A program made the translations under genes and the position numbers. Shown here in pieces: positions 16,635 to 45,033 of a stretch of DNA of 64,000 bases. The stretch comes from Nemertoderma westbladi (taxonomy: Eukaryota > Animalia > Xenacoelomorpha): positions 1 to 64,000 of the forward strand of contig JAUCBJ010008403.1 of the NCBI GenBank assembly GCA_032718475.1, given 5' to 3'. Each line of letters starts with the position of its first letter. Within the stretch, counting starts at the first letter, position 1. The notes under the pieces were generated by a model. It had not been told where the DNA came from, made no database searches, and saw only the letters and a program-made list of their open reading frames with translations.

Positions 16635-19600
16635 TTAGCGCAGCAAGTAAGTCAAGCTGGTGGGCTTGACCTCCTGCCGACCATAATTTCCGGATTCTTC
16701 TCTGGCCATTTCAAGCAGGCATAATCGACCTATTGGTCTGTTGAGGCGCTGTTGTACGTAATTGAGCTTGCCCTTTTCCTTTACTATTATGAGATCGATG
16801 GACCTGACGAGACCATCAGCGCTGGTGTGTGTCTCAACTATGCGCGCTGTTTGCCAGTATTTGTGAGGTAAGTCCTGATCTACCACTAGGACCATATCAC
16901 CTACCCTGGCATTGTCCTTCATCGCGAACCATTTATTACGCAATTGGATGCTCGGAAGGTAGTATCTTTCAAAATGATTGGCGAATCTGCTTGACAGCAG
17001 TTGCACCATCTGCCATGTCTGTCGCAGGTGCTCATCACCATCCTCCGTGAGTGAGAGTGGAAGCATGACAACCTTCTTCTTCATTAAGAAGTGTGCGGGG
17101 GTTAGAGCTTCTAAGGCCTTGGGGCTGGATGAGATGGGCATAAGAGGTCTGTCATTTAGATAGGCTGAGACCTCTTCAAGTATGGTGCGTAATATCTCAT
17201 CGGTGAGATAAGCTTTGCAGGGCAGGATGTGGTGGAACGCTACCTTCACACTACGGATCAGCCGTTCCCAACTTCCACCCCACCAAGGTGCATTCGCTGC
17301 ATTGAATGTCCAGCTGGAGGCGGTGACCTTTAATAGGTTATCTACTTGCTCCTGATTCCACTTGTCTATGCTTTTAGCTATCTCATTATTGGCTCCTATA
17401 AAGTTGGTGCCTTTGTCCGACTTCATAGTATTACTAGTGCCAAATCTACCTATTTGTCTTCACAGGCATAATATAAAGCAGTTCATGGAAATGTCATTTA
17501 CCATATCTAAGTGCACAGCGCGGCAGGTCATGCATACAAAGATAACGCACCAACGTTTTACTATAGTTCAAGCGCGCTTGACTTCAATGGGTCCAAACAG
17601 ATCCACACCTGTGTGGGTAAAGGGTGGTTCGTAGCAGCTCACACGTTCCTTGGGCAAAGGGGCTTCCATTTGAGTCATGGGTGCGCAATAAAGTTTCTTG
17701 CACGGAATGCAATGCCATAGTACTTGGTTTAGAGCATTTCTGGGCTTAATGAGATAGTACTGTGTACGTATCTCACTCAGTATACGCTCCCTGCCCGCGT
17801 GGAACAATTTACTGTGCACATCCTGGATCATTTTGCGTTGTATATAAGGATCCGAGATTAAGATTGGGAAAATTGTGTCGTGCGATAGTGGTGCATTTGT
17901 AAGTCTACCACCAACTCTGATTAACCCATCAATCATTGTGCTGGTATACTTATCATTGAACCGTAAGTTGGGGTTCTTAGACAGGTGTTCGTACTTGGTA
18001 GGGTCATCCTGGAGCTGAGCTAGCCTCAACAATTGTTTATTGGTATCATCGACCTCTTCAGCAGACAAGCTACCCAAGGGGGAGGATAACTTGGAGTATC
18101 TAAAGTATACATATTTCTTTAAGATACTGAGGGCGCGGCAAAGTTTGTGCCACGAGCTATAATGATCTAAGGCTTGAGTTATAAGTGGGGATAGGCCTGG
18201 AATTAAACTGGGGAGTTGTTCTGCACTGATTAGCAGACTATCACCAGGACGCAGATCTTCCTGCACATGCATCGAAGTCATGTCCAAAGGTCTGAAAAGT
18301 TTCGATTTTGATGCTCGCACCTTGGGCTTAATAATCTCGGCACCCTTCGCTTGCTGCCGTATTTCGGCAGGTGTTAGATTTGCTGGCCATTCATCTTCTG
18401 GTTTATGTAGAAAAGCTGGTCCCTCCAGCCAACATTTCGTATTGATAAGTTCCGTAGGTGTCGCGCCTCGCGATGCAATATCTGCAGGGTTAAGCACTCC
18501 CGGACAATGCCGCCATTGCTCAACCTCAGTGTTCTTTAGGATAATGGCAACACGGTTGGTCACAAAAACGCTGAACTGGCACACCGTGTTTGTTAGGTAT
18601 TCTAGAACCAAAGCTGCATCAGTCCAGTAAACTGTCTTAACTATATTGTAGTCCGTTTGTGCCAATATATTCTTAGCTATAATAGTACTATATAAAGCTG
18701 CTTTGAGTTCTGTGCGGGGAATGGTTAAGGAGTCCTTTGGCCTGGCAATAGGTCTAATTAGTGCTTTGGAAGCAGCCAATGCTACCTTTACTCCTTCATG
18801 GGTTACTACCCTAAAGTAAGCCACCACACCCATCCCCTTATCACTGGTGTCGCCGAATAGATGGAGTTGAATCTCGAAGGTAGGCAGGACATTCCCGAAG
18901 TATGCTCGAGGCACTAAAAGGCCCTCCAAGTCAGGGAGTGACAGTTCCCATTTCCACCAGTCATCTAGCAGCTCTCCCTTCAGGGGGAGAGATCCTTAAA
19001 CATATACGTTTGGTTCTAACTAGATCATCACGCAACTTAACCTTAAAAAACATATTGTCGGTCTCAGTGCTCCAACAAAGACCTAGGGTCTTTGTTTCCG
19101 GCAGGTCGTCCTTATTCAAGTCTAATTCAGTGTCACCCCATTCGGAGGGTTCAATTGCCTTTAAGAACTCTCTTGAATTGCTCGCGAACTTGGTTAACCT
19201 GAAACCTCCTAGTTTAAGACAATCTATGGTAGAAAGTGCTATATTTATAGCTTCTTCTACTGATGGGGCTGACTTCAAATTGTCATCCATGTATATGTCC
19301 CGTTTGATATTATTAATAACTGACTCTGGAAATTCATCTCTGTGGTCATCTGCAGTCCGGTGCAAGACTGAACAAGAGTTTGAAGGACTAGAGATTAATT
19401 CCGAAGGCTTGTATGGTCATTCTATATTCTACGGGTGTCACTTTAAGATCACCCTCAGGCCACCACAAGAAACGCATGCTATCTCTATCTTCGCTCAAGG
19501 CCTTGACCTGCAAAAACATGCCTTCAATATCAGAAGCAAAGGCTACCTCATACTGTCTCATACGCATTAAGATCCCCGGTAGAGACTGTAACAAGTTAGG

Positions 19601-22600
19601 CCCTGGTAATAACTCAGAATTTAAAGACTGCCCTTTATAATGTGCTGATCCATCGAATACGACACGGATTTTTCCGGGTTTGTCTTCCCGCTCGACATAG
19701 TGATGGGTCAAGTAATAAGTTTTTTCACTCGGGGCCGAGTCAAGGGGAACTAATTCTGCATACCCTTTACCTATGAATTTAGCCATCTGTTCTTTGTACA
19801 ATTTACAGGCTGGGGGGTTAGATGTTAAACGTCGTTGGAGTTGCAAAATACGTTTTTCAGCTAGCGGTCTGTTGTTGAACAGCTTAGGCTGTGGTGCACG
19901 CCAAAGCAAACCTACCTCGTATTTACCTTCCAAGGGCAAAAAACGTGTGGTAGTTCTCTGTATCTGTTTTGCACGCTCTTCTTCTACTGATGGTGCTCTG
20001 TCATTGAAATTATGCTCTAAGGTTTCCTGTTGCATCCATGCTGCTGTGTATTCTTCTAGGTGAACACGGCGTCTAGCTTCCTCCAATTCCAGGAGCTCCT
20101 GCTGATGCTCAGCACGAGTATCAAGTAGGAGGTGGTATAGCTTATATTGGGTGTCCCAAAGATCGCTGTCACTGATTAAGTTAGTGGCTTCAGAAGTATC
20201 AAGTCGTGCAGAGAATGTATCATTATCTGATGACATGTCAGACTCACTCTCGCTGTCTATATATAACCTTCCATCAATGGTCATACAAGTTTGCTCTATT
20301 TCTATGTCACTGGCCACTGGGTGTGTCTGTTCACTGGTGATGTACTTTGTTCCAAGACGTTCTTTTAATGTCTTGTTAGATGGGCCAGTACAGAACCAAC
20401 CCACGCGAGTCCTTCCTGCATAAGCAGACAAAGGTTTTGGGTACTCGGGTCTCTTTTCTAGGACTTCTAATGCCTCAGGGACGTTTTGCCCTACCAGCAA
20501 CTGTACACCTGGGTAATCGGGGGGGAATCTTGGGATATTATGTTCCCTAGTGAAGTTATCTTCATCCAAGTTATATTCCTTAGCCTGGCTTCGAGCGAAA
20601 TTTTTAATGGCTACCATTTTTACATTTTTGACACTGTCTACACCCTGTGTATCCTGCGGGGCAGATCGAGAGCCCTTATATTACACTGTTTCTACAGTAG
20701 ACTGCCACTTCTGCATGATACCCGAGAGGTTCAATTTCATTTTGTGACTTTCGCTTTCATGGAATATGGTGTCTGCCAAATCCTTATCTATGAAGGTACC
20801 TGTGCTACCAGTATCCATTAAGGCATTGACCACTACACTACAATTTCCTGCATGAAGACGCACCTGCAATAGTGGAAATTCACGGACACCCCTTATTTCC
20901 ATGCGTCCTATTGGACTTGGAAGATGATTTGCTCTAAAACAACTTTCCATGATGGGGTCCTCAGGGTCTTCATATGTGAGTGCTTCATACACATCTATAT
21001 TATTGCAGCACTCATCGTCATCAGAAAATTCTCCAGGAAAAAACTTATCTGGCTCCTCATCTGTGTCCCTTATGTCCTGCTCTACAAAGTGTACACGTTG
21101 GTCGGTTTCCCCATTGGGGTCACGTTCTTGATGTAAAAGTGAGTGATGGGGACCTTGACAAATATTACAAGAGTTGGTATTTACTAGACTACATTTTCTT
21201 CTGAGATGCCCCGGTTTAAGGCAGAGAAAACAGGAAAGCAAGTCCATGGCCGTTTGCCTGCGTTCCTTGAGGGTTTTCTTCAAGAACATTGGACAGCGCG
21301 ATAAGGGGTGTATTTCGAGTTTACACAGAGGACACTCATATGCCATTGGGGTTATGGTGTTGTTAACCTTAGTCTTCCGGTCCTCCAGATCGTTATTTCT
21401 AGGCTTTAAATTTGGTTTAGAATAAGTCTCGCCCCTTTCTGTATGTTTTAGATTTTGAACTGGCTTCTCAATGCTATGTTGTTTTTTACCTTTGTTATAA
21501 TTGGGTTTGCTCAGGTAAACGTTCCCATAACCATCTTCTTCTGGCTCACTGTTAGAGAGAAGCTCTTCAAAATTGGTCCGGTAGGCATATCGTTTTTTAA
21601 TAGTAGCCTTCTCCGTTTTGGACTCTGAACGATTGGCTCCCTTTTCGCGGTCGAGAGTCTTGAGATAAGTTTTTACTTCATCATCTAGAAATCCCCTGAA
21701 AGTATTCATATCTGGGGATGACCCATTTCTTTTATTATACACCATAGTTAATCTATCCCATCTGGTCCCAATGGAACCCTTTGGTAAAGCACTGGAAACC
21801 ATCTGTACTGTCATAGCAGTGTCATAAACTTCACTTCGATTAAGCCAATCCAGCTGCCTACAGATTTCCTCGACATCGTCTCTAAATTCAATTATGGCAT
21901 TTTGAGAGACTCTGCCTTTGGAGGTGAGTCTCTCATACATGCATCGTGCTAAGCTGTCCTCATTGCCGTAACGTTCTCTTAACATATTCCACACGATATT
22001 TACACCATCCGCATGTCCAACATATCTAGCCGCCATATGCTTAGGGGAACCTTCGAGGCAATTGATTAAGAATCTTAATTTCTCGCTATTATTTAATGGC
22101 GAGTCTAGAATATTGTCCTTACAAAATTCGGTAAAGGATAGCCATTTTAATTCATCTCCATCAAATTTCATTATTTGACCTGTTGAAACACACTGTCGGG
22201 CTTCAGTACGAGCCATGTGTTTTGATAGGTCTGCCTGGATGACTGATGAATTAAATAGGATGTCTGTCAATGGTGAATTGTTGTTGTCCTGATATGTGGT
22301 ATTTTCTGCCTGAATACCATTCACATCCGACGCTCGTTTTAGGATCCGCATCCCTCGAGCATTGGTTTGTGAATCTGTTTGCTTATTAGCTGTTGCCACA
22401 GTATCCTGTAAAATAACCAGTTGTTGCTGTAGGTCTTCATTTTCCTTCAATATGGAGTTAAATTGTTCCTTACACTCCTTCAATTGGCCTTCAGCTGACT
22501 CCTGGCCAGGATGCAGCTTGTAACTTCTTCTGTCTGGAAATGGTGCATTGGTAAAATTGTCAGGTGTGCTATCATCTGGGAATGATGCGGCATTAACTCT

Positions 22601-25108
22601 GGTATAGCGTGAGTCACCCTGTGGCGAGACACATCGTCTGTGAGTATCTTGTGCGAATCTAACTTCCGGGCGAGGGAGGGGTGTCACATTATTATATAAT
22701 GGGACAAACGTCCGCCTTCCAGGCGATAACGGCATTGCCTCATTCCAGTCCCGATATCCTGTTACCGGCGCTATTGCGGTTTTTATAGCGGGGCCAGTGG
22801 GAGACAGCCTATCATCTGGATTGGTGTAATATGGGCGATTATGATATGGTTTGTAATATGAGTCAACTTCAGTTGTCACTGGGAAACCTATGTGGTGTTC
22901 AATAACTGGCATGTCCCTTAAGGGTATATTTTCTGCATGGACTTGATCCACCCTTGAAGTAATGGGGGGAATATATTTCGAGGTGGTTGGGGGGTGAGGT
23001 TCCCTTTCCAAACGAGTTATTGGTGAGACTCCACTACCAAAAGAAATTATTCCTTCTCTAGATTGTGCTACTGTACTAGATAAGTAACCATGGTCCCGTA
23101 GCCGGGAGTATGTCATTGATGGGATGGCTTGGGTAACTTGAACAGGACATTGCATGTTTGTGGTTTTAACATTTGGGTTTATAGTGTGAGATAAGTTACT
23201 GCTGATAATTGGAGAGGTTACTGCCGTGGTCTTCGGCAGGCCATCAGATTTATGCGTTTCTACTACTGAGTCAATGAACTCGGGTGAAGCACCACTATCG
23301 CTTGGTTTAACAGTGAAGACGCTGTGTGTAGAAGAGGGTGGCGGGTGCTCCCCATTCGACATTTTATCTACTGTCACATTCTCGTGTATTGTTAGAGCCT
23401 TAGGCTCATTTGGCTCTACTACCTCTGGCAATTTTTCCAGGGAATGCTTAGGAGCAGCGCCAGTGTGGAAACTATCAACCATGCTGGCATAATCACCAGA
23501 GATCACATTTCGATCTCGAGGAGGGAGGTGTGGTAAAACTACTCGGGTGGCTCGCCTGCGTTTACTCTTGGAGCTCCTCACACTTCCACCTGCATCCGTG
23601 GAAATGCACTCATCGGATGAAGTAAAAGTATCCTTAAAGGACTTATCACATCCTTGTTGTACGCTAGCCCTTTCCTTGCGGTGTTGTTCGTCTTGCTTTA
23701 GTAGGGCTAGCTTCTGCTTTATAGCTAGTTCCTTCTCCACGAAAGCTGTAAGTTGAGCTTCCTGTTTGGCGAGTTGTGCTTTCTCTTTAGCAGACTGTAG
23801 TTTTCTCATAGTATCATCTAATTCTGCCCTTTTTTTATTTGCTGCTAATTGTAGTTCTAATTCTAGAATTTCCCGCTTGGCGGCGTGTTGAACCTTTCGT
23901 TCTTGTAGGAAGCACTCTGCGTCTATAGTATCAAGGACATCTCTGGTTTCCTTACTGGAAGGTGCTAAGCCTTTAAGACGCGTCCTCAACTCTGTTTCTC
24001 CAACTGTCTTGATATAAGAACCCAAATACCTTGATATGGCATCCATACCATCGCTGAGTTGAGATTCTTCCGAGTCTAAATCGGAATTATTAGCAGCCTC
24101 TTTCCCAGAGCAAGCTATGTCTTCACCAGGAGGTAATACCGGCCTATGTAATGACTCAAGAGCTAAGGCTTTCCTTGCTATTACTGCCGTTTCTGACAGT
24201 TGGCGAGTCAGCATGGATGAGAGTTTACTGTCATTATATCTAGATGCCATCTCATGAAAGGCAGATAGTATAAGCCGTATCCTACAAATGATTTCCTTTA
24301 CCTCAAGATACTTAGCTGGGTTTGTCTTAGGGTCGTGTTGCTCAAGTTTTAATTTATGGGTCACCATTTCTATATGATGCTCAAATTTACTTACATGTAT
24401 GCATGCCTCGGTAACCAATTGCTCAATATTGGTAACGCCCCGAGGTACCTTTAACCTATATAGTTCATCCCAAGGTAGCTCATTGAATCTGAATAATTTA
24501 TCTAGGGCTGGCTGGTTATAGTATAAGTTGACCAGGTAATGTAGTTCGTCGGTGTATATGTCCTGTTCAATGGCTAATATACCCTCTTCAACCTTGTGCC
24601 GGTAGCTGTCTATCTCCTCTAACAGGAAAGCTAGTCTGACTTGGGGGGTAGACAAGAGAGGCTCGTTAAAACTGAGCTGCTGACTTGCACTAGCTAGTAA
24701 AGTCGGAACTTCCTCGCTACTTGTTTGGGAGTGAGTAAACATGATTGGGGAAGTATCTGCCAATAACGGCTGACCCTGACCTTGACCAATGCCATCTTCA
24801 AAGTTAATAAGGTTCAGATGGGTGCTGGGTTCACTTACCATTGTACCAGTTGTCGGGCATGTAAGTGGCCGGGCGATTGGTGACCACCTATCTCCATCCA
24901 TTGGTTTGTCAGAAAGGTTCTGGCCAAGTCTAGCTTCTTCCGCCTCCCTGGAGACCTGCCTGGTTCGTATTCTTGAACGCTCCCAAATTTTCTTACTGCG
25001 AACTGGTTGAGCTATTATAGGCATAGTGTGAGGTGGTATGAGCCCCGCAGGGTTCAGTGTGAGGGGTTCTTCTGACTTTCGACTCAAATCGCTATCAGCG
25101 GTTGACAT
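16635..25108 (-). pseudogene. Element A gag-pol polyprotein (disrupted)
   Basis: Three Gag Zn knuckles, PR LMDTGS, RT DIEGMFLQV/YMDD, RH LFGDTS..NPADIASRG, IN HHCC + GVDLFGP/SDKGTNF/WERLIRSVK. In-frame stops at 20681, 17568 and 17460, a frameshift near 19395, and a ~100-bp deletion near 18990 removing the DPLG motif. Confidence 0.93.
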
Positions 25109-25554
25109 GTTTTAATTTTATAATTTTGAAATTCGAAGTTTTATTGCAAAGCTAAGTGTTATTTTATTCCACACAGGTTAGAAATTGCCAAAAACTTCTT
25201 GTAACTTCAAATATTACGAACACCACCTAGCGGAAATTCATACACACGATATACACCCTTTATTTCTCAGTAATCCAGGTAGAGCTAGCTCTTAGCTAGG
25301 ATTAATGCACTTTATACTTTCAAATGAATCAGTGCTCTGCCTTACTTCTTTAAAGCTGAGTTCTATGCCGAACTTATAAAGTTTGAGACATCCCTAAATT
25401 TCATAAGACCAAATAAATCCAAGCAATAAATAACACACGCCTGAGGGATTTTATTAGACAAGCCCGCACACACACGCTACAGACAGTGACGTTTGAATGC
25501 AATAAGAGTTTATCATTCAATCCCTGTTATTCCCTGAAACAACAAGTGTGGATG

Positions 25555-27434: not shown

Positions 27435-27444
27435 AGACTATTAC
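27435..27444 (-). other. Non-tRNA primer-binding site of A (LTR-complementary)
   Basis: Sense gtaatagtct abuts the LTR CA; its complement lies in the 3' LTR at 8998-9007. Confidence 0.65.
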
Positions 27445-28528
27445 TGTCGAGGCATTTAAGACAAGATTAATTTTACAGTTCTCAATGGTAATATAAAGTT
27501 CGATCGCGTAACCCAATTTCGAAGTTCAAACACCCCACTAGACCTAGTCAGTCGTAAAGTACTAATTGCCTCGGTGTACCCACGAATCCGTGGGAGCACT
27601 TATACAACGGATCGTTACTTTGATACAATAGGTGGGACGTAAAGTACAGTAGATATTGATGGCTGTAAACTGAAATTATGGGGGGATATGTTGTAATATA
27701 CCGTTTATAGTTCCGTTTCACTACGTTGTATGCAAGTATTCGTAATTATGACTTATTATGAATTAATAATGAAACATTTGTGAAAGGTCTAGGTATAGGG
27801 TAAGTATACTTATTACTCGTACTATTGAATCGATATTGCTATACATTGATCTTAAATATATTTGTTATGAATGCTTGTGTTCGTGTTGGTAAATAATATT
27901 ACAGTGTTGGATGTCATACACACTCAATACGTTTGAACCGTTGTCGCCTGTAGGGCAATACTCGAAGTTAGCAACTCACCTATTATGGTGGTAAATAAAA
28001 CGAGATGTTTCCTTTAAACAATGTTAATACATAATGAGCAACAACGATAATAACAGCAATAATAACAATAAATCAATGTTAACTATGTAAGCATGTAAGA
28101 TAAGCATGTAAAAGGGTAATTAAGTGAAAGTAAGTGAAAGTAAGTGAAAGTAAGGTAATAGACCTCTTAGATCTTATGAGGTCTATTTAGGTGGTTTGAG
28201 GGTAATAATATAAAGGTTACGCCTACAAAATGAACTAAATCTAAACTATAAATACAATTGTCACAGAAGGACGGCCACTGGTAGTAGTAGCCAATGAGGA
28301 CCCACAAACATGAAAGCAACACTACTCGCTATCAGTAAGCTGAGTGCAGACTTTCTGAGCCGACCAATAGGAGAAATAGGCAGACTAAATACAAATATCA
28401 GATTTACCAGCACGAATAAGTAGTGGGGCTAGCCGTGTATCTGAATAGCTATATTGCTGTACACAACACATATTATACAGTAACACTAGCGTTACATAGA
28501 TTTTGGGGCTTGTGGAGCTGCATCAAAA
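27445..28528 (-). repeat. 5' LTR of element A (1084 bp)
   Basis: Matches 8287-9376 apart from a few substitutions and a 5-bp deletion near 28161. Confidence 0.95.
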
Positions 28529-28943: not shown

Positions 28944-29066
28944 TGTTCGCGCTTTCAGACCTTTGGCAGTTTAACCCGCCAAATTAGGATGTCTTCTAGA
29001 TAATAAATCGCTTTTAGCCTCTGACAAGTATTTGATTCACTACACTAGTCGAAACCAATCTGTGCG
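28944..29066 (-). repeat. Distal piece of C 3' LTR
   Basis: Matches 62498-62620. Confidence 0.95.
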
Positions 29067-30308
29067 TGTAAAAGCTTCTGTGGGATATAACTGGCCCTTT
29101 TGCTTTGCAATCCAGTTTCCCCCCAGGCGCTGGAATACTCTAAAAAGCTCTCTAACTCGAATGATGCAAAGCGACCGGCTGATTGGCTGATTTGCTGTAC
29201 GAGGGGCTTTTTGCTATGTTCTATCGGCCAACCAGAGCTATAGCAGCAGAGTATGCAACCAGGACAACCGAGCGGAGTGACTCATTTTGTGTGTTGGCCA
29301 AGGGTTGCAAAATTCCTGATAGTTCGGCATTTAGATATTCGTGGAACTTGTGGAATCTGGTGTTCTGCCAATGAGATCTAATCCTCTCTGTGTAAAAAGA
29401 TACCTGCAACGGTGTTAGGGACAGTAGTAGCAGTTTTTTCTTGATACTGTTGTGTTGTTTGTATCTAGGCCAGGAACACCGGCTCTAGAGTCAACTCGTT
29501 TTCATACTTTAGAAGAAACATTAGTAGGCTTAAGATTATAGAGCGTATAACTGTTATCACAACACAACTCATAACAACTCACATATCGGTCCATATCAGT
29601 ACATTGTCATATCATATCTTAACCTACCGTCTTAATGGTTTGCTGTTGTTTGGTTGAATATTATTTGGAGAACATTTATAAAGAACCCAAATTTCCCAAT
29701 TTTCTTGATACACTACAGGTTAGAGAGACGGGTTATATATAGCGATTGCGACTTGTATTGTTGTGGTTTGTAGTGAATTTAATGCTATTTGATAAGCACT
29801 ACATTGGTCCGTTGCTGTTCTCTTTATATATGATAAAAATCATTGACGGTCGGCAAATTAGTGAGCAGTATTGTGTGTTACCGGTAGTGTGCATGATTGT
29901 GACTGATAACTAAGCATTTCCTAAAGAATGCGCCTCATACGTGAATCATAAGCCTTACTGACTTACCGTTGTGATTAGTATAAGTAATATCTCTGTTTAC
30001 TTAGATAGAGCGCCACGTCTTAAAGGAACTGTTAATATTTCCCGAAAGTGAAAAATATTAGTCAGAAATTATTTATTAACGATCAATCGAATAATACAGT
30101 AAGTTTACACTGCAATAATAATCTAAGCCCTCAGAATCCAGCCCCCCGGGTATATCCAGCGGGTGAATGGACGCGCACTAGGCTGGCTTCTGCTAATGTT
30201 GTGTTTATTGGTATTAAATATTTGTCATCTTCTAAAGTATATTTATAAACCAAAAGACATATAAATTTTGGCAGGTTAAACTGCTAAAGGTCTTCAAAAG
30301 CGCGTACA
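29067..30308 (+). repeat. 5' LTR of element B
   Basis: Matches 43787-45028 with about 9 substitutions counted by eye. Confidence 0.96.
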
Positions 30309-30319
30309 ATAACAGTTAT
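30309..30319 (+). other. Non-tRNA primer-binding site of B (LTR-complementary)
   Basis: ataacagttat is the exact reverse complement of LTR 29547-29557. Confidence 0.75.
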
Positions 30320-32410: not shown

Positions 32411-32512
32411 ATACTGTAATAAATTAACGGTACTAGGCCAACGGTTATACTGAATTACTAGACTTGCTTTAACTGAAACTATAGCAGTAGACATTCAACT
32501 GTATAGCTAAAC

Positions 32513-35500
32513 ATGTCTGACACTCAGCAAAACCTGTCAGACAGTCTAATCGATACAACCATCTGTGACACAGATAGGAGTGGGGAGCGATTAAGAAAGG
32601 AGTTCAGTTCACCTCCTACTGCAAGAAAGGTCATCCCTCCAGTAGTATCAGACCCTAGGCTAATCCACCATAGGTCCATCATAGGCACTCGGGCCCAGGT
32701 CAAACGGAACCAAGAGGCAGCTGTCCTATCGCAGCAACATCTTGGTCAAGAACCTAGTTCCCAGCGACCCGATAGCTCCAGTAGTTCGGATACTGTAGAG
32801 CTGACCCCCGAACGCGGAGTGCAGATGGCGGCTACAGCCTACTCGGACCCCCTTCTCACCCTTCCTGCCGCAGTGCTAACTACTATATTCATTGCGGTGG
32901 AGGAACACCAAGTCGATCGGGCGAGAAGTAAGCGAGCGACCCAAGATAGTTATGCGGGATACGCCAGGGAAGAATTGATGTCTATTGTCGAGTCACAATG
33001 GAACTTTCCCGGACCCGGACTCCCGTTAGATTTGTCCGAAGCTACTTGGGAAGACATACATAGGATGGGAGTGACTAAAGATACGATGGATCCAGCTGTT
33101 TGGAAGAGGTCGGCAGCAGGATATGTGCAGGGATTCTTCGGCTCCTTAGAGCGATTAGAAGAACAACTGTTTCGACAACCCCAAGGACCTCAAGAGCAGG
33201 AAGAGCTGCTTTATCAAGTACGCGAAAGAACCCTACGCATTAGACTAATCCTATCAGCCTTTGAGGAAACTTCTAAAAGAAGACAGGACATGTCGCTGCA
33301 AGTTGCTGTCAAGACTTGGTTCCAGCGGGTAGGTCTCAAAGTTCAGGAAACGGCCCAGTGGAAATCCCAGCTGGCTGAGAGACCAACCTATGAAGAACCA
33401 ACCGATGCCACCCTTTCTAAAGCGGAAAGCGAAGTGACAGCAGAGAGACCGCGAACTAGAGACGCTATCGACATTTATCTGTCCGACTATCAGCGATTCC
33501 TAGGAGACGAAGAGTTGAGGAGACGGCTGTCTGGACTTTCCCCTAATAGTGAAGGAACCAAGCTTGTGTTGGACTCAATCGATGCGGAAATGTTAGCTGC
33601 AAACCAAGCTGAATTTGATGAAAAACTCCGCCTCGCTAGAGTCCGAGAAGAACAAGTAAAGAAAAAACGGATAGAGGAAAGAAAGGCAGCAGCAGTAATG
33701 GCGGCAGAAGCAGAAGCAGAAAGAAAGGAAGCAGAAGCAGAAAGAAAAGCAGCGGCGGCAGAAGCAGAAGCAGAAAGAAAAGCAGCGGCGGCAGAAGCAG
33801 AAGCAGAAAGAAAAGCAGCAGTGGCAGAAGCAGAACGGAGAGCGTCTGAGGAGACTATCCAACTGGAGTTGGAAAATCTGCAAGAGACGCAAGACAACAT
33901 AAATAAACAGTTAACTGCTAGTCAAATGCAGATGATGAGAAAATCTACTCCCAAGCGCCAGGGATACACATCCTCGGAGGAAGGCGAGACCACAGATCCT
34001 GAAGGCGGAGGAAATAGATCTTGTCTAAGCAGGCGTAGAAAAACATCTCACCGTCACAAATTGCCTGATTTGCCCCCAGCTGTTAGAAGACAGTTAGCTA
34101 GCACAGACTTAGGTAGTACGGAACCCGCATACCAAACTATTCAGGTCAAAAGACTCCCTACAATAGTTGATGAGCCTGAAATAATTAGGCCTGTCGTTCC
34201 CAAAGTCACTTCTGTGTTAGAGACCCCTGTACTTCCAGAGCTTAACTCTAAATTCCCTTTACATAGTACTACACTGCCTGTACCCGGTAGAACAGTCCAA
34301 GAGAATATCCCTGTCCTGATAGCAGAGAGAGAAATCAAAGATTTGTCTCCCGTCGTCCAGCGTCGGCCCGCTACAATGTTGGCGACTCCCGCTTCGGCGG
34401 TCGAGTGGGTAGAGGAGGGACGGCGGGGGATGAACCTCCTGCTCGGACAGATGCAGGAGACTGTCCACCAACTTAAGGGAACAGTAAGGGAAGGTAGGGC
34501 AGAGTTGCAAGAAGTGCAGCAAAGTATCGCACTGGAACGCGACAAGTTAGTCAATATACAAAAAGGGATACCAATACCCCCTGTAAAATTGTGTCAACCT
34601 GTTAGGTCTGAAGTATTACATGCGCAAGGTGTGGAGCCTACACGCATCTATACTGCTAGTGAAGTAGAAACTCCTATAGCAAACCCTATTAAGGGTGATT
34701 ATAGACCTGTTGTTAATGATGTTCCTTATAGACCTGACAATGATCCGAGAAATTTATATACCGATAATTCGATATTAAATAACACGATGGCCCAAGAAAG
34801 CTTTACGCGTCAGATGGCTAGAACAGAAGCCCGCCAAGCGGTCAAAGTGGGAGAGATCGTCAAATTCAATGGAGATGAGATGAAATGGTTACCTTTCAAC
34901 GAATATTACAAAGATAGCATACAAAACTCTGTACTATCTAACGGAGAGAAACTTAGGTTCCTCATCAAGTGCTTGGAAGGACCTCCCAGGTTAATGGCGT
35001 TAAAGTTTATTGGACATCCAGAAGGATTAAGACAAGTATGGGATACATTAAACATCAGGTATGGTAACAAGGATAACATAGCTAAGTATTTGTATGCAAA
35101 ATTAGTAGCCCCCCGGCACTTCCTTAGTAGCGGGATTATAGAGTTTTCCGATGAGATTCAAGATATCTGTAGACAATTGGACTGGTTAGGTAAGTCTCAT
35201 GAATATCAGAGTTCCATGGTTATTGGAGCCATAGTCTCTACTTTACCAAAGGGTGGAGTATGTACACGCTGGGACAAGAAAGTGTTGTACATGAATGAAC
35301 AACAACGACGAAGTCCTACCATGGCTGATCTCATGTCCTTCTTAGATGGTGAAGTAAAACTACAACTCATCAAGCAGTCCAGAGAGAAAACATCGGAAAA
35401 TAAGGTAAGTGAGAAACCCGCTTCTAGGAGAAGAGTAACACCGGTGTGTTACACTGACGACGGCGAAAGCCAAGCTTCTCAAGAAGAGGACAGCGGGAAA

Positions 35501-38500
35501 GACACTGAGAGATCTTACTACGTTGAAAAAACCTCAAAAGATGTAAGTAAATACAAGGCTCGAAACAACGATAGGAGAGAACAGGTTGCCAAGACCCCTC
35601 CTCAGTCTCCTAACAGAATGCACCGAAGAAAACCCGAAGAAAAAACGAGAGTGCATCAAGTTACCCAAGGTAAAGTGAGTAACATAAAACCTAACTGTGC
35701 GCTGTGCGACAGGACCCACCGTTTGAGTGCGTGTGCTGAATTTCTAAAGAAATCCCTTGTAGACAGACGTGCAGTCGTGTGGGACAAGCGGTTATGTTAT
35801 AATTGCCTCAGACCAGGACACCAACGGCGAACCTGTTACTCCGACATAAAGTGTGCAAAGTGTGGCGCGAAACATCATATCTTGTTACACAGTGAGTTCG
35901 ATCGAGACAAACTGAGTCAGGTAAGTGAGCCCGAACTACATGTCCAATTCAGTGATGTAAACGACACTGATCAAGAATCTGAGATGGAAGGATTCTATAC
36001 TGACGAATTCTCCGACGCCAACGAATCCTGTTATCTAATCAATACCGCAGTGTATCGAGCACTTACTTATGAAAAGGACACCAACGATGAGTTTCCCCCA
36101 ACTAACTTTGACAGACAACCATCCTGGAAACCTTCAACTTCCAACGTAGGAATCAGAGAATTTCCTGTAGTGCAGGTAAGAGTTCAGGGTCCTAACAAAA
36201 GTTACATAGTGAACGCCCTCCTTGACTCCGGCAGCACAGGAACATTCATCGATCAAGAACTAGCCGAAGATATCTTTGCTGGACAACCCAAATTCCGGAC
36301 TAAATTGAATATGTCAGGAATTATGCAGGTTTGGAAATCTACCCTAACGGCAGATTACTATGTAGGTGTGTTGTCCACCCCCCAGGATAAGTTAGGAGCA
36401 CAAGGTATAAGGTCGGTAAAAATGGTGGCTATAAAGAACTTCGCTACTACTCAAGCAGACCTTTATAATTGGGACGAGGATGAGAGCATCCAACATCTTA
36501 AAATACCTCGATTTCAGACAGATTATCCTGGAGTGCAAATACTCATCGGCCAAAACGCGCACGAGGCGCTCAAGACATTGGAGAAACGGCCTGCTCAACC
36601 ACAGCCACTGCAAACCTATGCGGTAAGAACTAGAGTAGGTTGGTACTTTACTGGCCCTTCCCGCAGGACTCTCGAAGAGAGAATGCCACACGAACAAATA
36701 TATCAAGTAAACGATTGGGAAGTGGAAAGCAGTGAGGTGGACGAACTAACTGAGGGAACAACATACTCCTCAGATAATGACGACATCTACCAACTCTTCG
36801 ATGAAGAGAACACAATTGACCTACTTACAGAAAACCAAACTTGGAAAAATCAGGTGAACCTATGTCAACTGATTCGCCCATCGGAACCCATTGCTTACAA
36901 TGACGAACTAAACGATGAGATAGAGCGCTACAACGCTAGAACTCGGGACGAACTAGCCGTAAGATTCTTTACTCAAGAACTGGTAGAGCCCAATTCATAC
37001 GATAAGGCTCTATCGATAGAAGAAGAAAGAGCCAAGCAAATCCAGGAAACAACTACACGTTTTTTAAAGGAGCAAGGTAGGTATGAAATCGGCCTACCAT
37101 TCCGAAAACGAGAACCTAGATTTATAAATAACAGACCCTTGGCAGAGAAAAGAATCGCTCAATTACATCGACGCCTTACAGCTAATGCTTCAGCTAAAGA
37201 AATGTACCAAACTCAGCTGAAGAAATTTATAACAAAGGGATACGCGGAGCGAGTACCGGAAGGAACACCAGTGACTGAGAGAACGTATTACTTAACCCAT
37301 CATTACGTTCCCAAACCCGGTAAACCCCAAGAAGTACGAGTTGTATTCGATGGCTCCGCCCTATATATGGGCCAATCCCTCAATTCCGAGTTGTTACCAG
37401 GACCCAACTTACTCCAATCCTTGTTGGGAATACTTTTAAGATTAAGACAATATTCCATCGCGTTCGCCTCCGATATAGAAGGAATGTTCTTACAAGTCAA
37501 GGCGCTGGATAGAGATAGAGACAGCCTGAGATTTCTGTGGTGGCCTGAAGGAGACCTCAACCAGAAACCGGTGGAGTACTGGATGACCATCCAGGCTTTT
37601 GGGATCATATCTAGCCCTTCCAACGCCTGCTCCGTGGTGCGAACCACTGCGAATGACAACCGAGACGCCTTCTCCAAAGAGGTGATAGACAACATCAAAC
37701 GTAATATATACATGGACGATAATTTAAGGTCCCTTCCATCAGTAGAAGAAGCCATTGATGTTGCGAAAGGAACGGTAGAGTGTTTGAAAAGAGGTGGATT
37801 TCGACTGACGAAATTCACCAGCAACTCCCGTGAGTTTCTGGAAGCGATACCGGTAGAAGACCGAGGAGCGAAAGACCTAGACTTAATAAAGGATGATCTT
37901 CCAGAAACCAAGACGCTTGGCTTGAAGTGGGACACTGAAAGAGATATCCTGTTTTTTCAGCTCAAACAGCGAGATAATCCAGTTCGGACCAAACGGATTT
38001 GTTTAAGTATCCTGAGCACTTATTTTGACCCATTGGGATTTATTAGCCCAGTTATATTGATTGCTCGGAGTTTAGTACAACAAATGTGGCTTGAAAACCA
38101 CTCATGGGACGATCCGCTTAAGGGAGAACTGTTAAAGAAATGGATGAAATGGGAAGATTCTCTACCTGCCATCGAGAACTTTATAATTTCCCGTGCATAT
38201 TTTGGACATGTTCTTCCGACGTATTCCTATCAACTCCATGTGTTTGGAGACGCCAGCGACATGGGAATAGGTATAGTAGCATATCTGCGAGTCGAAACTC
38301 CGGATGGAATCAAAGTCGCCTTGGTTACCTCTAAGGCATTGATTAACAACAAATTAAAGGTTCCTCGAGCGGAGTTAAAGGCGGCTTTATACGCTACAGC
38401 CATCGGCCGGAACGTAACAGAACAAATCGACTATCCACTGGAGAAAACGTTTTACTGGACCGACGCTTTACTCGTGTTGGAGTATCTAACCAATGAAGTC

Positions 38501-40630
38501 TGTCAGTTCAGCGTTTTTGTTACTAACAGGGTAGCTATTATTCTTAGTCGCACAACGATAGATCAATGGAGACATTGCCCTGGTACGATTAATCCAGCCG
38601 ATATCGCCTCCAGGGGAGCAACTCCACAGGAACTGATAGATACTCCAGACTGGTTGGGTGGACCCGACTTCCTGAGCAAGGAAGAGGATGAATGGCCTCC
38701 TCACCTTACTACGGCTGAGATTAGACAAGCCAAGGGAGCGGAGACAGTTAAACCTAAAACCCGGGCGAGTAAATCGAAGTTATTTAAACCGACTATCGAT
38801 CTATCTGTATTACATGCTTCCGGAAACGATGCTTCGGATTCACAATCCCTCGCCACAAATAAGTCTGTTGTGGAAATTAGAGATAGAGATTGGAAATCTG
38901 GAATACCAGACGTCTCGCAAAGAATCTCACCCATGCTGCAGAGAGCAATGCATCACTACAGTTCCTGGAATCGGCTCTGTAAAGCCGTCACATATTTAAG
39001 GAGATGTTTTCATCATCACTACTCCAGGACGAAGACCATTAGTGATACCGCTCCATTGACATCTGCGCAAGTTCATGTTATTAAAAATTTACCCAAATAT
39101 AAGACATCTGACCGTTTTCTAAAGGAGAAAATTAGTCACCAGGAGCATGAAGAAACAAATAAGCAGATACTGAGACTCCTGCAATGCTATGAGGATTCCG
39201 ATAAGTATTTCCTGTTGTTGAGAAATCCGCAGATGCGCTTAAGGGATCGATTCTCGAGCACAATGATAGATGGGTTAATACGTGTTGGAGGAAGGCTCAC
39301 CAATGCGCCATTATCCTTTGACACTAAATTCCCCATACTCATTAGAAATCTTGAAGTACAAATCAAGATGATTGTAGATGTTCACAGCAAACTTTATCAT
39401 GCTGGTAGAGAACGAGTTCTTAGCGAAATTCGAACTCGCTATTATTTTGATAAACCCCGTAGAGCTCTGAACCAAGTTCTTAGGAACTGCATACCCTGTA
39501 GGAAAGCATTCAGTAGGCCTTTAACACAGCGAGAGGCAGAATTACCTAGGGAACGAGTAAGCTTTTATGAACCACCTTTTACTAATACTGGTGTAGATTT
39601 ATTTGGCCCTATTGAAGTATATCGTGCTAGGACTATAGTCAAGAGATGGTGTGTCATCTTCGTGTGCATGACTTGCAGAGCCATCCATCTCGATATGGTG
39701 AACGATCTATCTACCAACAGCTTCGTCTTAAGTTTACGACGACAGATCGCTCGCTTCGGGACGAGTAATACCATGAGATCGGATAAGGGAACGAACTTCA
39801 TAGGTGCCAACAACGAAATACAGGCTTACGTGAAGGACTGGAACCAAAGACAGGTGGACGACCAGCTAAGGATAACAGCGTCTAGCTGGACCTTCAACGC
39901 CGCCGACGCCCCTTGGTGGGGAGGAAGTTGGGAGAGATTAATTCGAAGTGTCAAAACCGCATTTCACTTTATAGTGCCATGCCGCGCGTATCTCACCGAC
40001 GAACTTTTGCGGACGTTAATGGAGGAAATAGCTGCCTATCTCAACGAGAGACCGCTTATGCCAGTCTCATCGAGTCCCGATTCCCTGGAAGCGCTAACAC
40101 CCGCGCACTTCCTACTGAAGAAACCTGTAGCCATGCTCCCACGATCGGAGATTGCCGACGGAGACGAATACTGCCGTCGAACTTGGAAACTTATGCAGTT
40201 GCTATCCCGTCGTTTCGCTGACCATTTCGAGAAACATTATCTGCCCACGCTACAACTTCGAACTAAGTGGTTTGCGCAGCAAGAAAACGTCAGCGCCGGA
40301 GATATGGTGCTTATTGTAGATCCAGACCTCCCATGTAAACGGTGGCAGACAGGTCGTATCATCGAGACCCACATCTCGGATGATGGTTTAGTACGCTCGG
40401 TAGCTCATATCTCGAGCGATGGTTTGGTGCGATCAGTAGAACTCGTCGTCATGCGGCGTAACTTTAAGAAACCAGGGATAGTCTTTGAGACGCAACAGCT
40501 CAACCGCCCAGTTGGTCGTTTATGTTTACTGGAAAGAGACAGAGAACTCTCCGGAAACTATGGAAGGCAAGACACTCTTCCCACGACCACCTTCCTAATT
40601 CCTCAAACATCTAGGGACTCCCCAACGTGA
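32513..40630 (+). CDS. Element B intact gag-pol polyprotein (2705 aa)
   Basis: Gag knuckles CALC..CYNC..CAKC, PR LLDSGS, RT YMDD, DPLG, RH VFGDAS/NPADIASRG, IN HHCC and D,D,E; single open frame. Confidence 0.97.
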   Translation: MSDTQQNLSDSLIDTTICDTDRSGERLRKEFSSPPTARKVIPPVVSDPRLIHHRSIIGTRAQVKRNQEAAVLSQQHLGQEPSSQRPDSSSSSDTVELTPERGVQMAATAYSDPLLTLPAAVLTTIFIAVEEHQVDRARSKRATQDSYAGYAREELMSIVESQWNFPGPGLPLDLSEATWEDIHRMGVTKDTMDPAVWKRSAAGYVQGFFGSLERLEEQLFRQPQGPQEQEELLYQVRERTLRIRLILSAFEETSKRRQDMSLQVAVKTWFQRVGLKVQETAQWKSQLAERPTYEEPTDATLSKAESEVTAERPRTRDAIDIYLSDYQRFLGDEELRRRLSGLSPNSEGTKLVLDSIDAEMLAANQAEFDEKLRLARVREEQVKKKRIEERKAAAVMAAEAEAERKEAEAERKAAAAEAEAERKAAAAEAEAERKAAVAEAERRASEETIQLELENLQETQDNINKQLTASQMQMMRKSTPKRQGYTSSEEGETTDPEGGGNRSCLSRRRKTSHRHKLPDLPPAVRRQLASTDLGSTEPAYQTIQVKRLPTIVDEPEIIRPVVPKVTSVLETPVLPELNSKFPLHSTTLPVPGRTVQENIPVLIAEREIKDLSPVVQRRPATMLATPASAVEWVEEGRRGMNLLLGQMQETVHQLKGTVREGRAELQEVQQSIALERDKLVNIQKGIPIPPVKLCQPVRSEVLHAQGVEPTRIYTASEVETPIANPIKGDYRPVVNDVPYRPDNDPRNLYTDNSILNNTMAQESFTRQMARTEARQAVKVGEIVKFNGDEMKWLPFNEYYKDSIQNSVLSNGEKLRFLIKCLEGPPRLMALKFIGHPEGLRQVWDTLNIRYGNKDNIAKYLYAKLVAPRHFLSSGIIEFSDEIQDICRQLDWLGKSHEYQSSMVIGAIVSTLPKGGVCTRWDKKVLYMNEQQRRSPTMADLMSFLDGEVKLQLIKQSREKTSENKVSEKPASRRRVTPVCYTDDGESQASQEEDSGKDTERSYYVEKTSKDVSKYKARNNDRREQVAKTPPQSPNRMHRRKPEEKTRVHQVTQGKVSNIKPNCALCDRTHRLSACAEFLKKSLVDRRAVVWDKRLCYNCLRPGHQRRTCYSDIKCAKCGAKHHILLHSEFDRDKLSQVSEPELHVQFSDVNDTDQESEMEGFYTDEFSDANESCYLINTAVYRALTYEKDTNDEFPPTNFDRQPSWKPSTSNVGIREFPVVQVRVQGPNKSYIVNALLDSGSTGTFIDQELAEDIFAGQPKFRTKLNMSGIMQVWKSTLTADYYVGVLSTPQDKLGAQGIRSVKMVAIKNFATTQADLYNWDEDESIQHLKIPRFQTDYPGVQILIGQNAHEALKTLEKRPAQPQPLQTYAVRTRVGWYFTGPSRRTLEERMPHEQIYQVNDWEVESSEVDELTEGTTYSSDNDDIYQLFDEENTIDLLTENQTWKNQVNLCQLIRPSEPIAYNDELNDEIERYNARTRDELAVRFFTQELVEPNSYDKALSIEEERAKQIQETTTRFLKEQGRYEIGLPFRKREPRFINNRPLAEKRIAQLHRRLTANASAKEMYQTQLKKFITKGYAERVPEGTPVTERTYYLTHHYVPKPGKPQEVRVVFDGSALYMGQSLNSELLPGPNLLQSLLGILLRLRQYSIAFASDIEGMFLQVKALDRDRDSLRFLWWPEGDLNQKPVEYWMTIQAFGIISSPSNACSVVRTTANDNRDAFSKEVIDNIKRNIYMDDNLRSLPSVEEAIDVAKGTVECLKRGGFRLTKFTSNSREFLEAIPVEDRGAKDLDLIKDDLPETKTLGLKWDTERDILFFQLKQRDNPVRTKRICLSILSTYFDPLGFISPVILIARSLVQQMWLENHSWDDPLKGELLKKWMKWEDSLPAIENFIISRAYFGHVLPTYSYQLHVFGDASDMGIGIVAYLRVETPDGIKVALVTSKALINNKLKVPRAELKAALYATAIGRNVTEQIDYPLEKTFYWTDALLVLEYLTNEVCQFSVFVTNRVAIILSRTTIDQWRHCPGTINPADIASRGATPQELIDTPDWLGGPDFLSKEEDEWPPHLTTAEIRQAKGAETVKPKTRASKSKLFKPTIDLSVLHASGNDASDSQSLATNKSVVEIRDRDWKSGIPDVSQRISPMLQRAMHHYSSWNRLCKAVTYLRRCFHHHYSRTKTISDTAPLTSAQVHVIKNLPKYKTSDRFLKEKISHQEHEETNKQILRLLQCYEDSDKYFLLLRNPQMRLRDRFSSTMIDGLIRVGGRLTNAPLSFDTKFPILIRNLEVQIKMIVDVHSKLYHAGRERVLSEIRTRYYFDKPRRALNQVLRNCIPCRKAFSRPLTQREAELPRERVSFYEPPFTNTGVDLFGPIEVYRARTIVKRWCVIFVCMTCRAIHLDMVNDLSTNSFVLSLRRQIARFGTSNTMRSDKGTNFIGANNEIQAYVKDWNQRQVDDQLRITASSWTFNAADAPWWGGSWERLIRSVKTAFHFIVPCRAYLTDELLRTLMEEIAAYLNERPLMPVSSSPDSLEALTPAHFLLKKPVAMLPRSEIADGDEYCRRTWKLMQLLSRRFADHFEKHYLPTLQLRTKWFAQQENVSAGDMVLIVDPDLPCKRWQTGRIIETHISDDGLVRSVAHISSDGLVRSVELVVMRRNFKKPGIVFETQQLNRPVGRLCLLERDRELSGNYGRQDTLPTTTFLIPQTSRDSPT

Positions 40631-42258: not shown

Positions 42259-43708
42259 ATGACGGAGTTGATAGAAGATGATCTTGGTATCAGGGAGCGA
42301 TATACTCTACCTTTACAAGCATTTGTGGATAGCTTGATACGCGGTGAAGCCGATCCAACCATTACGGAGGACGATGGTCGTTATATCGAACCGCCGATGT
42401 CCCAAGAGCAACTTACGCGTGAATTGGACTATCGAAAATTAACCGCTCGCTATACGCATCGTAATGGTACGTATATGGACTTCTTAACTACCGGCCATCC
42501 TATCGATTTACATGATACGGACGATGTAGACACTGAAAAGGGAAATGGTTCTATTTAAATATCATACCCAGCGGAGTCGTAACGATAAACCGAGAATAGA
42601 TCACGAAAATTCTATTCGTAACAGACTGGGAAGACGAACCAATATGCCTAGAATCTGAGGAGATTCAGCCTATCGCGCCCGGAACAGCGACAATGATTAC
42701 ATCCTAGAATGGTATCAAGGTCCACAGTGTCTCACTGCGTACAATTATCACCATGCCAACTATGTTTCTCGGCAACGTTGTCGGTTATGCGCATCGAAAG
42801 ACCATGTTACGCCCATGGACATAAACATCCGCTGTTCCTATTTCCACGAACAACCGGCGATGGAAATTTATTGCGCATATTGCAGACTCAATAACTTGCA
42901 TATTTTTGCGGTTTGCCCTCAATTTATGACTCAATGTCACCATTGTCAACTAAAGGGACATGCCAGTTTCGATTGCCCTTTTAATCACGATTTGGAAAGC
43001 GTAGATGAAATGATCACACTACGTTACATCAGAGCTTGGGAAGCGAACGCTGATTTACATTGTGATTTGCGCCATCGCTATTATCCCGGACGCGCTTACG
43101 AAGGAGTTTATGCGTTCCATCCTTATCTATTCGCTTCGGTCGAACAGAAATCACGCATATCGAGTTACGAGCTACTGAAGCGCGTCGGAGAATGTATTTC
43201 AACCAAATTCGTACGCAAATTTCTCAGGAGTGTTAATCCTAGCGACCTTCATTCCTATAACTTAATCAATTATATCCGTCAGGATCCGGACTATGGAGAC
43301 TTGTTTGTTAACTCACATCCCGAGTTACAAGAAGTATATCGACGGCCTTACGAATACCGAGCCCGTGAACGCGAGTTGGAAAGAACCATTAAACCCCGGA
43401 GGTTTCTAACTGCCTATGGTCCACCCACGGCCCTCGTTCAGACCACTCGTAAAGGACCCGTAAGAGCGGCTGTCTTGAAACGAGCTCTCAAAGCCATTAG
43501 ACCCCTCTCACCTGACGTTGATGTCAATCAACCCGGTACTTCGACTGGCGGATACACCGACCATAATCCTACACCCTCTGATGCAATCATATTGCACCCT
43601 TCACCCAGGAGTTATAGCCCTCCTTGTAAAGTGGCTCGCCCCAAAGAGAAAAGGACTCTGGCTAGCTTTAAGAAACTGCGTAAACGCCGTCCGCGCAAGA
43701 AAGACTAA
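42259..43708 (+). pseudogene. Element B ORF2, internally deleted (exonuclease lost)
   Basis: The N-terminus and zinc-finger C-terminus match C ORF2; the junction near 42630 skips ~2.75 kb; frameshifts present. Confidence 0.88.
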
Positions 43709-43778
43709 CTGTTTAGAGTATTTACGTATATTAGAAACTGTGATTTTGTATATTTTATAGACTCAAATCCCATTTTCT

Positions 43779-43786
43779 GGGAGCGG
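43779..43786 (+). other. Short polypurine tract of B
   Basis: gggagcgg directly before the LTR TG; identical in C (46112-46119, minus). Confidence 0.8.
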
Positions 43787-45028
43787 TGTAAAAGCTTCTG
43801 TGGGATATAACTGGCCCTTTTGCTTTGCAATCCAGTTTCCCCCCAGGCGCTGGAATACTCTAAAAAGCTCTCTAACTCGAATGATGCAAAGCGACCGGCT
43901 GATTGGCTGATTTGCTGTACGAGGGGCTTTTTGCTATGTTCTATCGGCCAACCAGAGCTATAGCAGCAGAGTATGCAACCAGGACAACCGAGCGGAGTGA
44001 CTCATTTTGTGTGTTGGCCAAGGGTTGCAAAATTCCTGATAGTTCGGCATTTAGATATTCGTGGAACTTGTGGAATCTGGTGTTCTGCCAATGAGATCTA
44101 ATCCTCTCTGTGTAAAAAGATACCTGCAATGGTGTTAGGGACAGTAGTAGCAGTTTTTTCTTGATACTGTTGTGTTGTTTGTATCTAGGCCAGGAACACC
44201 GGCTCTAGAGTCAACTCGTTTTCATACTTTAGAAGAAACATTAGTAGGCTTAAGATTATAGAGCGTATAACTGTTATCACAACACAACTCATAACAACTC
44301 ACATATCGGTCCATATCAGTACATTGTCATATCATATCTTAACCTACCGTCTTAATGGTTTGCTGTTGTTTGGTTGAATATTATTTGGAGAACATTTATA
44401 AAGAACCCAAATTTCCCAATTTTCTTGATACACTACAGGTTAGAGTGATGGGTTATATATAGCGATTGCGACTTGTATTGTTGTGGTTTGTAGTGAATTT
44501 AATGCTATTTGATAAGCACTACATTGGTCCGTTGCTGTTCTCTTTATATATGATAAAAATCATTGACGGTCGGCAAATTAGTGAGCAGTATTGTGTGTTA
44601 CCGGGAGTGTGCATGATTGTGACTGATAACTAAGCATTTCCTAAAGAATGCGCCTCATACGTGAATCATAAGCCTTACTGACTTACTATTGTGATTAGTA
44701 TAAGTCATATCTCTGTTTACTTAGATAGAGCGCCACGTCTTAAAGGAACTGTTAATATTTCACGAAAGTGAATAATATTAGTCAGAAATTATTTATTAAC
44801 GATCAATCGAATAATACAGTAAGTTTACACTGCAATAATAATCTAAGCCCTCAGAATCCAGCCCCCCGGGTATATCCAGCGGGTGAATGGACGCGCACTA
44901 GGCTGGCTTCTGCTAATGTTGTGTTTATTGGTATTAAATATTTGTCATCTTCTAAAGTATATTTATAAACCAAAAGACATATAAATTTTGGCAGGTTAAA
45001 CTGCTAAAGGTCTTCAAAAGCGCGTACA
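43787..45028 (+). repeat. 3' LTR of element B
   Basis: Matches 29067-30308. Confidence 0.96.
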
Positions 45029-45033
45029 GTGCG

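Follow-up and report, generated by a model that had tools for sequence, protein, structure and literature searches.

LTR-complementary primer-binding sites suggest self-priming in giant BEL/Pao retrotransposons of Nemertoderma westbladi

Layout and coding capacity of the three elements

The DNA analysed here (the window) is a stretch of 64,000 nt from the xenacoelomorph Nemertoderma westbladi (assembly GCA_032718475.1, contig JAUCBJ010008403.1, positions 1 to 64,000). It holds three LTR retrotransposons, A (minus strand, 28528-8287), B (plus strand, 29067-45028) and C (minus strand, 63698-28944), each with a 5-bp target-site duplication (TSD). Within each element the two LTRs are ≈ 99% identical, which indicates that all three are young. 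B is nested in its relative C, within the 3' LTR, in opposite orientation and ≈ 120 bp from the LTR end, and element A adjoins this nest. Lengths are ≈ 16.0 kb (B), 18.8 kb (C, without B) and 20.2 kb (A), with LTRs of 1.09-1.24 kb. The main features are as follows.

29067..30308, plus strand: 5' LTR of B, 1242 bp, TG...CA; 1233/1242 identical to the 3' LTR; 5-bp TSD
32507..40630, plus strand: gag-pol of B, a single open frame of 2707 codons with DUF1759, protease (DSG), RT (YMDD), Peptidase_A17, integrase and DUF5641
42289..43708, plus strand: second ORF of B, shorter than that of C by an internal deletion of ≈ 2.7 kb that spares the CCHC-type region
43770..43786, plus strand: polypurine tract region of B
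43787..45028, plus strand: 3' LTR of B
62498..63698, minus strand: 5' LTR of C, 1201 bp; 1192/1201 identical to the 3' LTR; 5-bp TSD
52055..60180, minus strand: gag-pol of C, broken into five pieces by frameshifts, plus a stop in RT; identity to that of B, 76-92%
46189..50304, minus strand: second ORF of C, in pieces; 39-52% identical to that of A
45029..46111, minus strand: first part of the 3' LTR of C, split by element B
28944..29061, minus strand: last part of the 3' LTR of C, past the B insertion
27445..28528, minus strand: 5' LTR of A, starting with TT and ending with CA; 5-bp TSD
16635..25111, minus strand: gag-pol of A, with frameshifts and stops
10194..14518, minus strand: second ORF of A, a 1207-codon frame plus a 272-codon piece, with a D-x-E motif and a Cys-rich C-terminal region; orphan
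8287..9376, minus strand: 3' LTR of A

The coding regions are of the Pao type. DUF1759 was recognised in A, B and C, and Peptidase_A17, Integrase_H2C2 and DUF5641 were recognised in A and B. In B, DSG, YMDD, DAS and the integrase motifs follow one another in the order protease, RT, RNase H and integrase; the hallmark BEL/Pao motifs used for this assignment are those given in an excerpt of PMC554778. The paired LTRs, TSD and polypurine tract of BEL/Pao elements are also present in all three. Over RT-RNase H, B is 95% identical to C and 67% identical to A, and the pol pieces of C are 88-92% identical to those of B. The closest database proteins were ≈ 38-43% identical, the named ones coming from corals, echinoderms, fish and a brachiopod. 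When the window was compared with itself, the LTR of A did not align to those of B or C. The A LTRs begin with TT, not TG (28523-28528 and 9371-9376, minus strand), a start that both the TSD and the polypurine tract define. By their enzymes, A, B and C are BEL/Pao elements, and, judged from the sequence, they appear to depart from the family profile in their priming.

The summed contig depth of run X1 over 28930-30308 was 100,000 to > 1,000,000 for the B/C-type LTR versus 200-1,100 for the LTR of A. This depth, which is not a copy number, points to a very large B/C-type family with variable U3 and site flanks. A separate RT ORF, probably of the non-LTR type, lies outside the three elements (4435-6039, plus strand; RVT_1, E 3.7e-30).

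Each element carries a second ORF after pol, and no env was recognisable among these ORFs. That of A comprises ≈ 1450 codons, the counterpart in B is devoid of the middle part, and the D-x-E motif is kept in A and C. The second ORF gave no Pfam match above cut-off, no useful PDB match and no sequence relatives; a search with 727 residues of the A protein found none among 1.84 billion representative proteins. Two structure predictions were obtained, both of low confidence (pLDDT 34), and the Atlas twice returned clusters of the PF01612 3'-5' exonuclease (0.79 and 0.89). We take the assignment as a putative DEDD 3'-5' exonuclease as a lead only.

Primer-binding sites and their complements in the LTRs

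The initial annotation had proposed that the 5' LTRs are not followed by TGG and that the bases next to them pair instead with a site inside the element's own LTR. TGG was indeed absent after the 5' LTR in all three elements (0/3). The primer-binding sites (PBSs), their complements and nearby features are listed below.

30309..30319, plus strand: PBS of B; its first base is the first after the LTR; not TGG
29547..29557, plus strand: candidate primer segment of B, the LTR site that pairs with the PBS; the 3' LTR holds another copy at 44267
62483..62497, minus strand: PBS of C, 15 nt
63233..63247, minus strand: LTR site of C pairing with the PBS; the 3' LTR holds another copy, from 45646
62416..62427, minus strand: second, 12-nt copy of the C PBS, in the leader, within a 70-nt tandem duplication
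27435..27444, minus strand: PBS of A, 10 nt plus one G-U
8998..9007, minus strand: LTR site of A pairing with the PBS; the 3' LTR copy, full length
30266..30289, plus strand: U5 hairpin common to B and C (z -3.4 and -3.1)
29719..29720, plus strand: predicted splice-donor-like GT of B, ≈ 160 nt after the site

The annotated pairings of B (30309-30319 with 29547-29557, 11 bp) and C (62497-62483 with 63233-63247, 15 bp) were both reproduced. For A, the 10 bp and one G-U described between 27444-27435 and 8998-9007 were found as well, but this site is the copy in the 3' LTR; the 5' LTR is short of 5 nt at the site and pairs over only 7 bp (28155-28161). In every case the duplex starts with the base that adjoins the LTR. 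As had been suggested, the sites occupy homologous positions, their 3' ends lying 751 (B), 735 (C) and 711 nt (A) before the LTR end, and the next seven bases after the site are common to A and C.

Pairing of this length was rare in the controls. In 20,000 trials each with Markov-shuffled LTRs, a pairing as long as the observed one arose 25 (B), 0 (C) and 91 (A) times, and internal positions used as mock PBSs gave one in 2 of 13,418 (B), 0 of 16,326 (C) and 32 of 18,008 (A) cases. The PBS of B is a near-palindrome, so that B alone is also compatible with a direct repeat that has one mismatch. This reading fails for A and C, whose longest direct match is 6 nt.

Between B and C, the PBS has changed at positions 6 and 8, and the LTR site mirrors both changes. 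When A was included in the comparison, six of the first 10 PBS columns varied and 30/30 cells paired; therefore, no single host RNA explains the pairing. The changes had been regarded as compensatory. They are matched, but a primer copied into the PBS during plus-strand synthesis would match them automatically. They point to templating more than to independent selection on structure; the argument is drawn from retroviral replication. Taken together, the BEL/Pao identity, the loss of a tRNA-type PBS and the LTR complementarity with matched changes were all supported.

The leader of C (62416-62497, minus strand) contains a 70-nt tandem duplication that holds two PBS copies. The 12 core PBS bases are identical in the two, the flanks have diverged, and the leader of B aligns with the second copy. 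An apparent match to the PBS in the 3' flank of C was rejected as a chance extension past the TSD.

Contigs of the public runs X1 and X3 carried the letter of the 3' copy at six of the seven substitutions between the two A LTRs (40 of 270 rows listed), and the X1 contig over the A site had 5 gap positions. The short 5' copy of A thus seems to be either a private mutation or an artefact of assembly. In the X1 contigs, 28 variable places at 8% or more were listed, six of them at 29564-29573, just after the B site. None of these 28 fell in the B site or PBS, a count that leaves contig ends aside and is weak for the PBS, which lies near the end of a stretch. In contigs of four runs, and in those of X1 alone, no PBS and site were linked within one copy.

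AATAAA does not occur in the LTRs of A, B and C, and R is consequently not delimited in these elements. In B and C, no clear TATA-like word lies 30 nt upstream of the site. Both contain TATA-like words 11-21 nt ahead of the 3' end of the site, which, if used, would place the transcript start after it. The loop between site and PBS measures 710-750 nt in the three elements. RNA folding from site to leader gave long-range pair probabilities of 0.83 for C, 0.06 for B and 0 for the shortened 5' copy of A, and the core duplex of B contributes only -10.1 kcal/mol. A local hairpin able to cover the PBS is predicted in all three and is not stronger than in shuffles (z -0.6 to -1.1). The U5 hairpin of B and C, compared with the U5-IR-like stem-loop next to the PBS in the Tf1/sushi group, has no equivalent in the local fold of A. 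The predicted splice donor of B has counterparts in C (63060-63059, +171) and A (27979-27978, +174 after the site); it is kept 160-174 nt after the site in all three, without a known acceptor. The genomic template must retain LTR sequence beyond this predicted donor.

The sense strand of element A contains three tRNA-like units with Pol III A and B boxes (16149-16224, 26027-26121 and 25658-25752, minus strand); a box scan found none in B or C. The unit between pol and the second ORF (16149-16224) was called tRNA-Pro by ARAGORN and scored 34.4 bits with the Rfam tRNA model. The other two are related to each other and lie in a duplicated leader stretch. These units may be SINE heads or element-made RNAs. 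The unit at 16149-16224 was rejected as a primer: it pairs weakly with the three PBSs (-4.7 to -7.7 kcal/mol), and for the PBS of A the pairing is internal. Matches from a relaxed ARAGORN search were noise.

Relatives in metagenome contigs

A scan of metagenome contigs by RT alignment yielded 79 loci with 38-46% RT identity. We scanned the 60 loci that have a leader and left out the 19 that lack one. Viral contigs contained no relative of A, B and C, and the exact B/C LTR word had no match in metagenomes. Where two LTR copies were available, the LTR end was fixed by their divergence; this kept eight loci, and four of 12 candidates (L010, L045, L059 and L060) were dropped because their LTR ends were not fixed.

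In seven of the eight anchored loci, the sequence 0-4 nt after the LTR is complementary to the locus' own LTR over 10-15 nt. Mock windows reached the observed match in only 0-2 of 808-944 cases per anchored locus. Six of the seven matches appear only after removal of a GT-AG intron of 67-149 nt within the LTR, and one is uninterrupted. That the intron has to be removed for the match to form points to an RNA partner of sense polarity. The eighth anchored locus has a TGG-type primer site. The only TGG-starting tRNA-type site recognised among the relatives lies 5 nt after the LTR (L047:61-82, L062:23-44). L053 and L061 represent one family.

To the 52 other loci we applied a fixed rule: an LTR-like end, followed by GT, with 11 nt of match across a canonical junction. 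Fourteen passed, whereas 100 shuffles gave 0.01 on average and never more than 1. The rule was chosen in the knowledge of an earlier blind scan that had included these loci, and the 14 correspond to about nine or ten families, several being copies of one family. The blind scan itself had a noisy null, with shuffles reaching 10-14 nt, and was not used as a count. The initial annotation had named a lack of complementarity in related families as evidence against its proposal; related families do carry it (7/8 anchored and 14/52 further loci). Its proposal of a self-priming BEL/Pao lineage is supported in part, and the feature is wider than one lineage.

In L018 (7775-7953), a GT-AG intron of 168 nt lies at the primer junction, and exactly this intron is absent from the sister locus L011 (7111-7121). 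The site of L011 is uninterrupted, as in A, B and C, so that one family occurs with and without the intron. L011 has either lost the intron at the DNA level or was assembled from a spliced transcript. A splice-made primer was considered for A, B and C themselves and rejected, because no junction match of at least 8 nt was found; a match only across a GT-AG LTR intron thus occurs in 6/8 anchored relatives and in 0/3 of A, B and C. A quick unrooted tree of 68 rows, built without the duplicate L038 and 13 loci of short RT cover, placed A, B and C as a clade on a branch of 1.42 and left the deep forks open. With this long branch and the open forks, the tree is compatible with a position of A, B and C inside or outside the splice-junction group. 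From sequence comparison, their uninterrupted site may be an intron-lost form of the splice-made primer of the relatives.

The site begins with GT in A and in 16 of the 18 tabulated relatives, which were partly selected for it, and with AT in B and C. Among the 18, a TATA-like word precedes the primer segment by 31 nt in L007 and by ≈ 80-200 nt in eight others. In 14 of 18, a poly(A)-type hexamer follows the segment within 100 nt, a count without a null in AT-rich sequence. The TATA-like words being mostly 80-200 nt upstream, the primer of many families probably lies inside R, and we consider it doubtful that a strict Tf1 geometry would be the rule among the relatives.

Models for priming and comparison with known systems

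In all LTR elements, the 3' end of the primer defines the LTR boundary. The PBSs of A, B and C pair with a 10-15-nt segment of the element's own LTR and not with a tRNA, and the element's RNA would thus probably be the minus-strand primer. We prefer self-priming because only the LTR segment was found to pair at the boundary, in the relatives only as spliced RNA. The segment would lie in R near the RNA 5' end, pair with the PBS, be cut at its 3' end and then be extended by RT. Strand transfer and plus-strand synthesis would copy the primer into a new PBS; this copying would carry LTR mutations into the PBS and so keep the sites matched. We infer the location in R, the cut, the enzyme and the action in cis by analogy with Tf1 and Tj1, as described in an excerpt of PMC4600332.

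The element's RNA could also prime from elsewhere. The primer would then derive from the copy in the 3' LTR or, in trans, from an independent LTR transcript, short or spliced, and its 3' end would be trimmed to the duplex, possibly by the second-ORF exonuclease. The TATA-like words of B and C mentioned above speak for this, as they would put the site in U3 and hence near the RNA 3' end only. The 750-nt loop is poorly favoured in B, and the predicted donor conserved 160-174 nt after the site could give RNAs that contain the site and lack the PBS. The D-x-E motif of the second ORF in A and C, the PF01612 clusters from the Atlas and the DEDDy ORFs of rotifer LTR elements (excerpt of PMC5408684) would fit the trimming step. 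However, the putative exonuclease is without a Pfam, PDB or sequence match and its predicted folds are of low confidence. Relatives with 6-7 kb between their LTRs, and thus little room for a second ORF, pair likewise, and the TATA box of L007, 31 nt before the segment, fits a 5'-end primer. On balance we judge a 3' or trans primer unlikely.

Two further explanations do without a primer from the element's RNA. If the pairing were a conserved long-range RNA structure, serving packaging, a translation switch or circularisation, something else would prime. Matched changes alone are no proof of priming, and a local hairpin with the potential to mask the PBS, as predicted for all three elements, is what a switch would show; yet the PBS hairpins are no stronger than shuffles, no other primer site is visible, and the duplex of A, B and C ends precisely at the LTR boundary, where the end of a primer must lie, that of the relatives 0-4 nt from it. 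We regard such a structure as quite improbable. Still less credence is given to a host tRNA fragment or other small RNA as primer, with the LTR match as a by-product or chance event. Half-tRNA priming is known in copia lineages (excerpt of PMC6317226) and element A carries tRNA-like units, but the three PBSs differ at six of 10 positions and each matches its own LTR far beyond chance.

Self-priming from the LTR segment, which we continue to prefer, can be extended to a wider scenario that we put forward tentatively and would sooner doubt than adopt. Aquatic-animal BEL/Pao elements might largely have left tRNA priming for an R-internal, ancestrally spliced primer, and the giant elements would be an intron-lost branch with a 750-nt loop and maybe a captured exonuclease. 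If this were true, splicing would license reverse transcription.

The ICTV profile of the Belpaoviridae gives a host tRNA-Arg or tRNA-Gly primer with an 18-nt PBS, genomes of 4.2-10 kb and LTRs of 0.2-1.2 kb (PMC8742986). A, B and C share with this profile the order Gag-PR-RT-RH-IN, the LTRs, the polypurine tract and family-specific Pfam domains. They differ from it by the missing tRNA-type PBS, by a length of 16-20 kb, about twice the size range, and by an orphan second ORF in place of a recognisable env. No report of BEL/Pao self-priming was found in the literature searched, which lay mostly outside subscription papers and included PMC554778, PMC3118150, PMC3601003, PMC11042837, PMC9094657, PMC8220671 and PMC5443660 as excerpts. 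If the proposal is true, BEL/Pao would be the third LTR superfamily with tRNA-independent priming, and the family definition, which names tRNA only, would need correction. It would also bear on which came first in LTR elements, self-priming or tRNA priming. Self-primed elements would be expected to escape tRNA-fragment silencing at the PBS, and LTR finders for which a tRNA site is obligatory will overlook such elements or trim them wrongly. The splice-made primer suggested by the relatives would link host RNA processing to the start of reverse transcription, a link not described in the literature searched.

Cer7 of Caenorhabditis elegans, of the BEL/Pao type, has reportedly been proposed to encode its own primer RNA. 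In contrast to A, B and C, that primer is reportedly an internal tRNA-like RNA for a tRNA-type PBS and not an LTR segment. As to the second ORF, the rotifer LTR elements Juno and Vesta have a DEDDy-type ORF3 according to PMC5408684, a paper without any mention of 'PBS'. As in A, B and C, this is an extra ORF after pol and a possible 3'-5' exonuclease. Juno and Vesta are not BEL/Pao elements, however, and their ORF3 is comparable to the second ORF in position and putative function.

The self-priming segment of Tf1/sushi elements is ≈ 11 nt long. Tf1 and Tf2 of Schizosaccharomyces pombe, Tj1 of S. japonicus and the Tf1/sushi group in general resemble A, B and C in that they have no tRNA site and a PBS complementary to their own LTR. 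In Tf1 and Tj1 the primer is the 5' end of the transcript (excerpt of PMC4600332), and in Tf1 it is reportedly released by an RNase H-dependent cut; a 5'-end primer is doubtful in many of the BEL/Pao relatives. The first five PBS bases of Tf1 are those of B and C (excerpt of PMC11042837), which may be chance because A differs. The Tf1/sushi pol is of the Ty3/gypsy chromovirus type, whereas that of A, B and C is of the Pao type; A, B and C have a loop of 710-750 nt, and their BEL/Pao relatives need splicing to form the primer. Self-priming has also been predicted for Tcn1 (gypsy) and for TAR, including Houba and Osr-1 (copia), in plants (excerpt of PMC6317226). These belong to other superfamilies and hosts, and the same excerpt describes no splice-made primer; as in our case, self-priming was proposed from PBS-LTR complementarity, that is, at an equal level of evidence. 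By the same kind of comparison, Tf1-like self-priming likely operates in a superfamily listed as tRNA-primed, in spliced and intron-free forms, and recurs in independent relatives.
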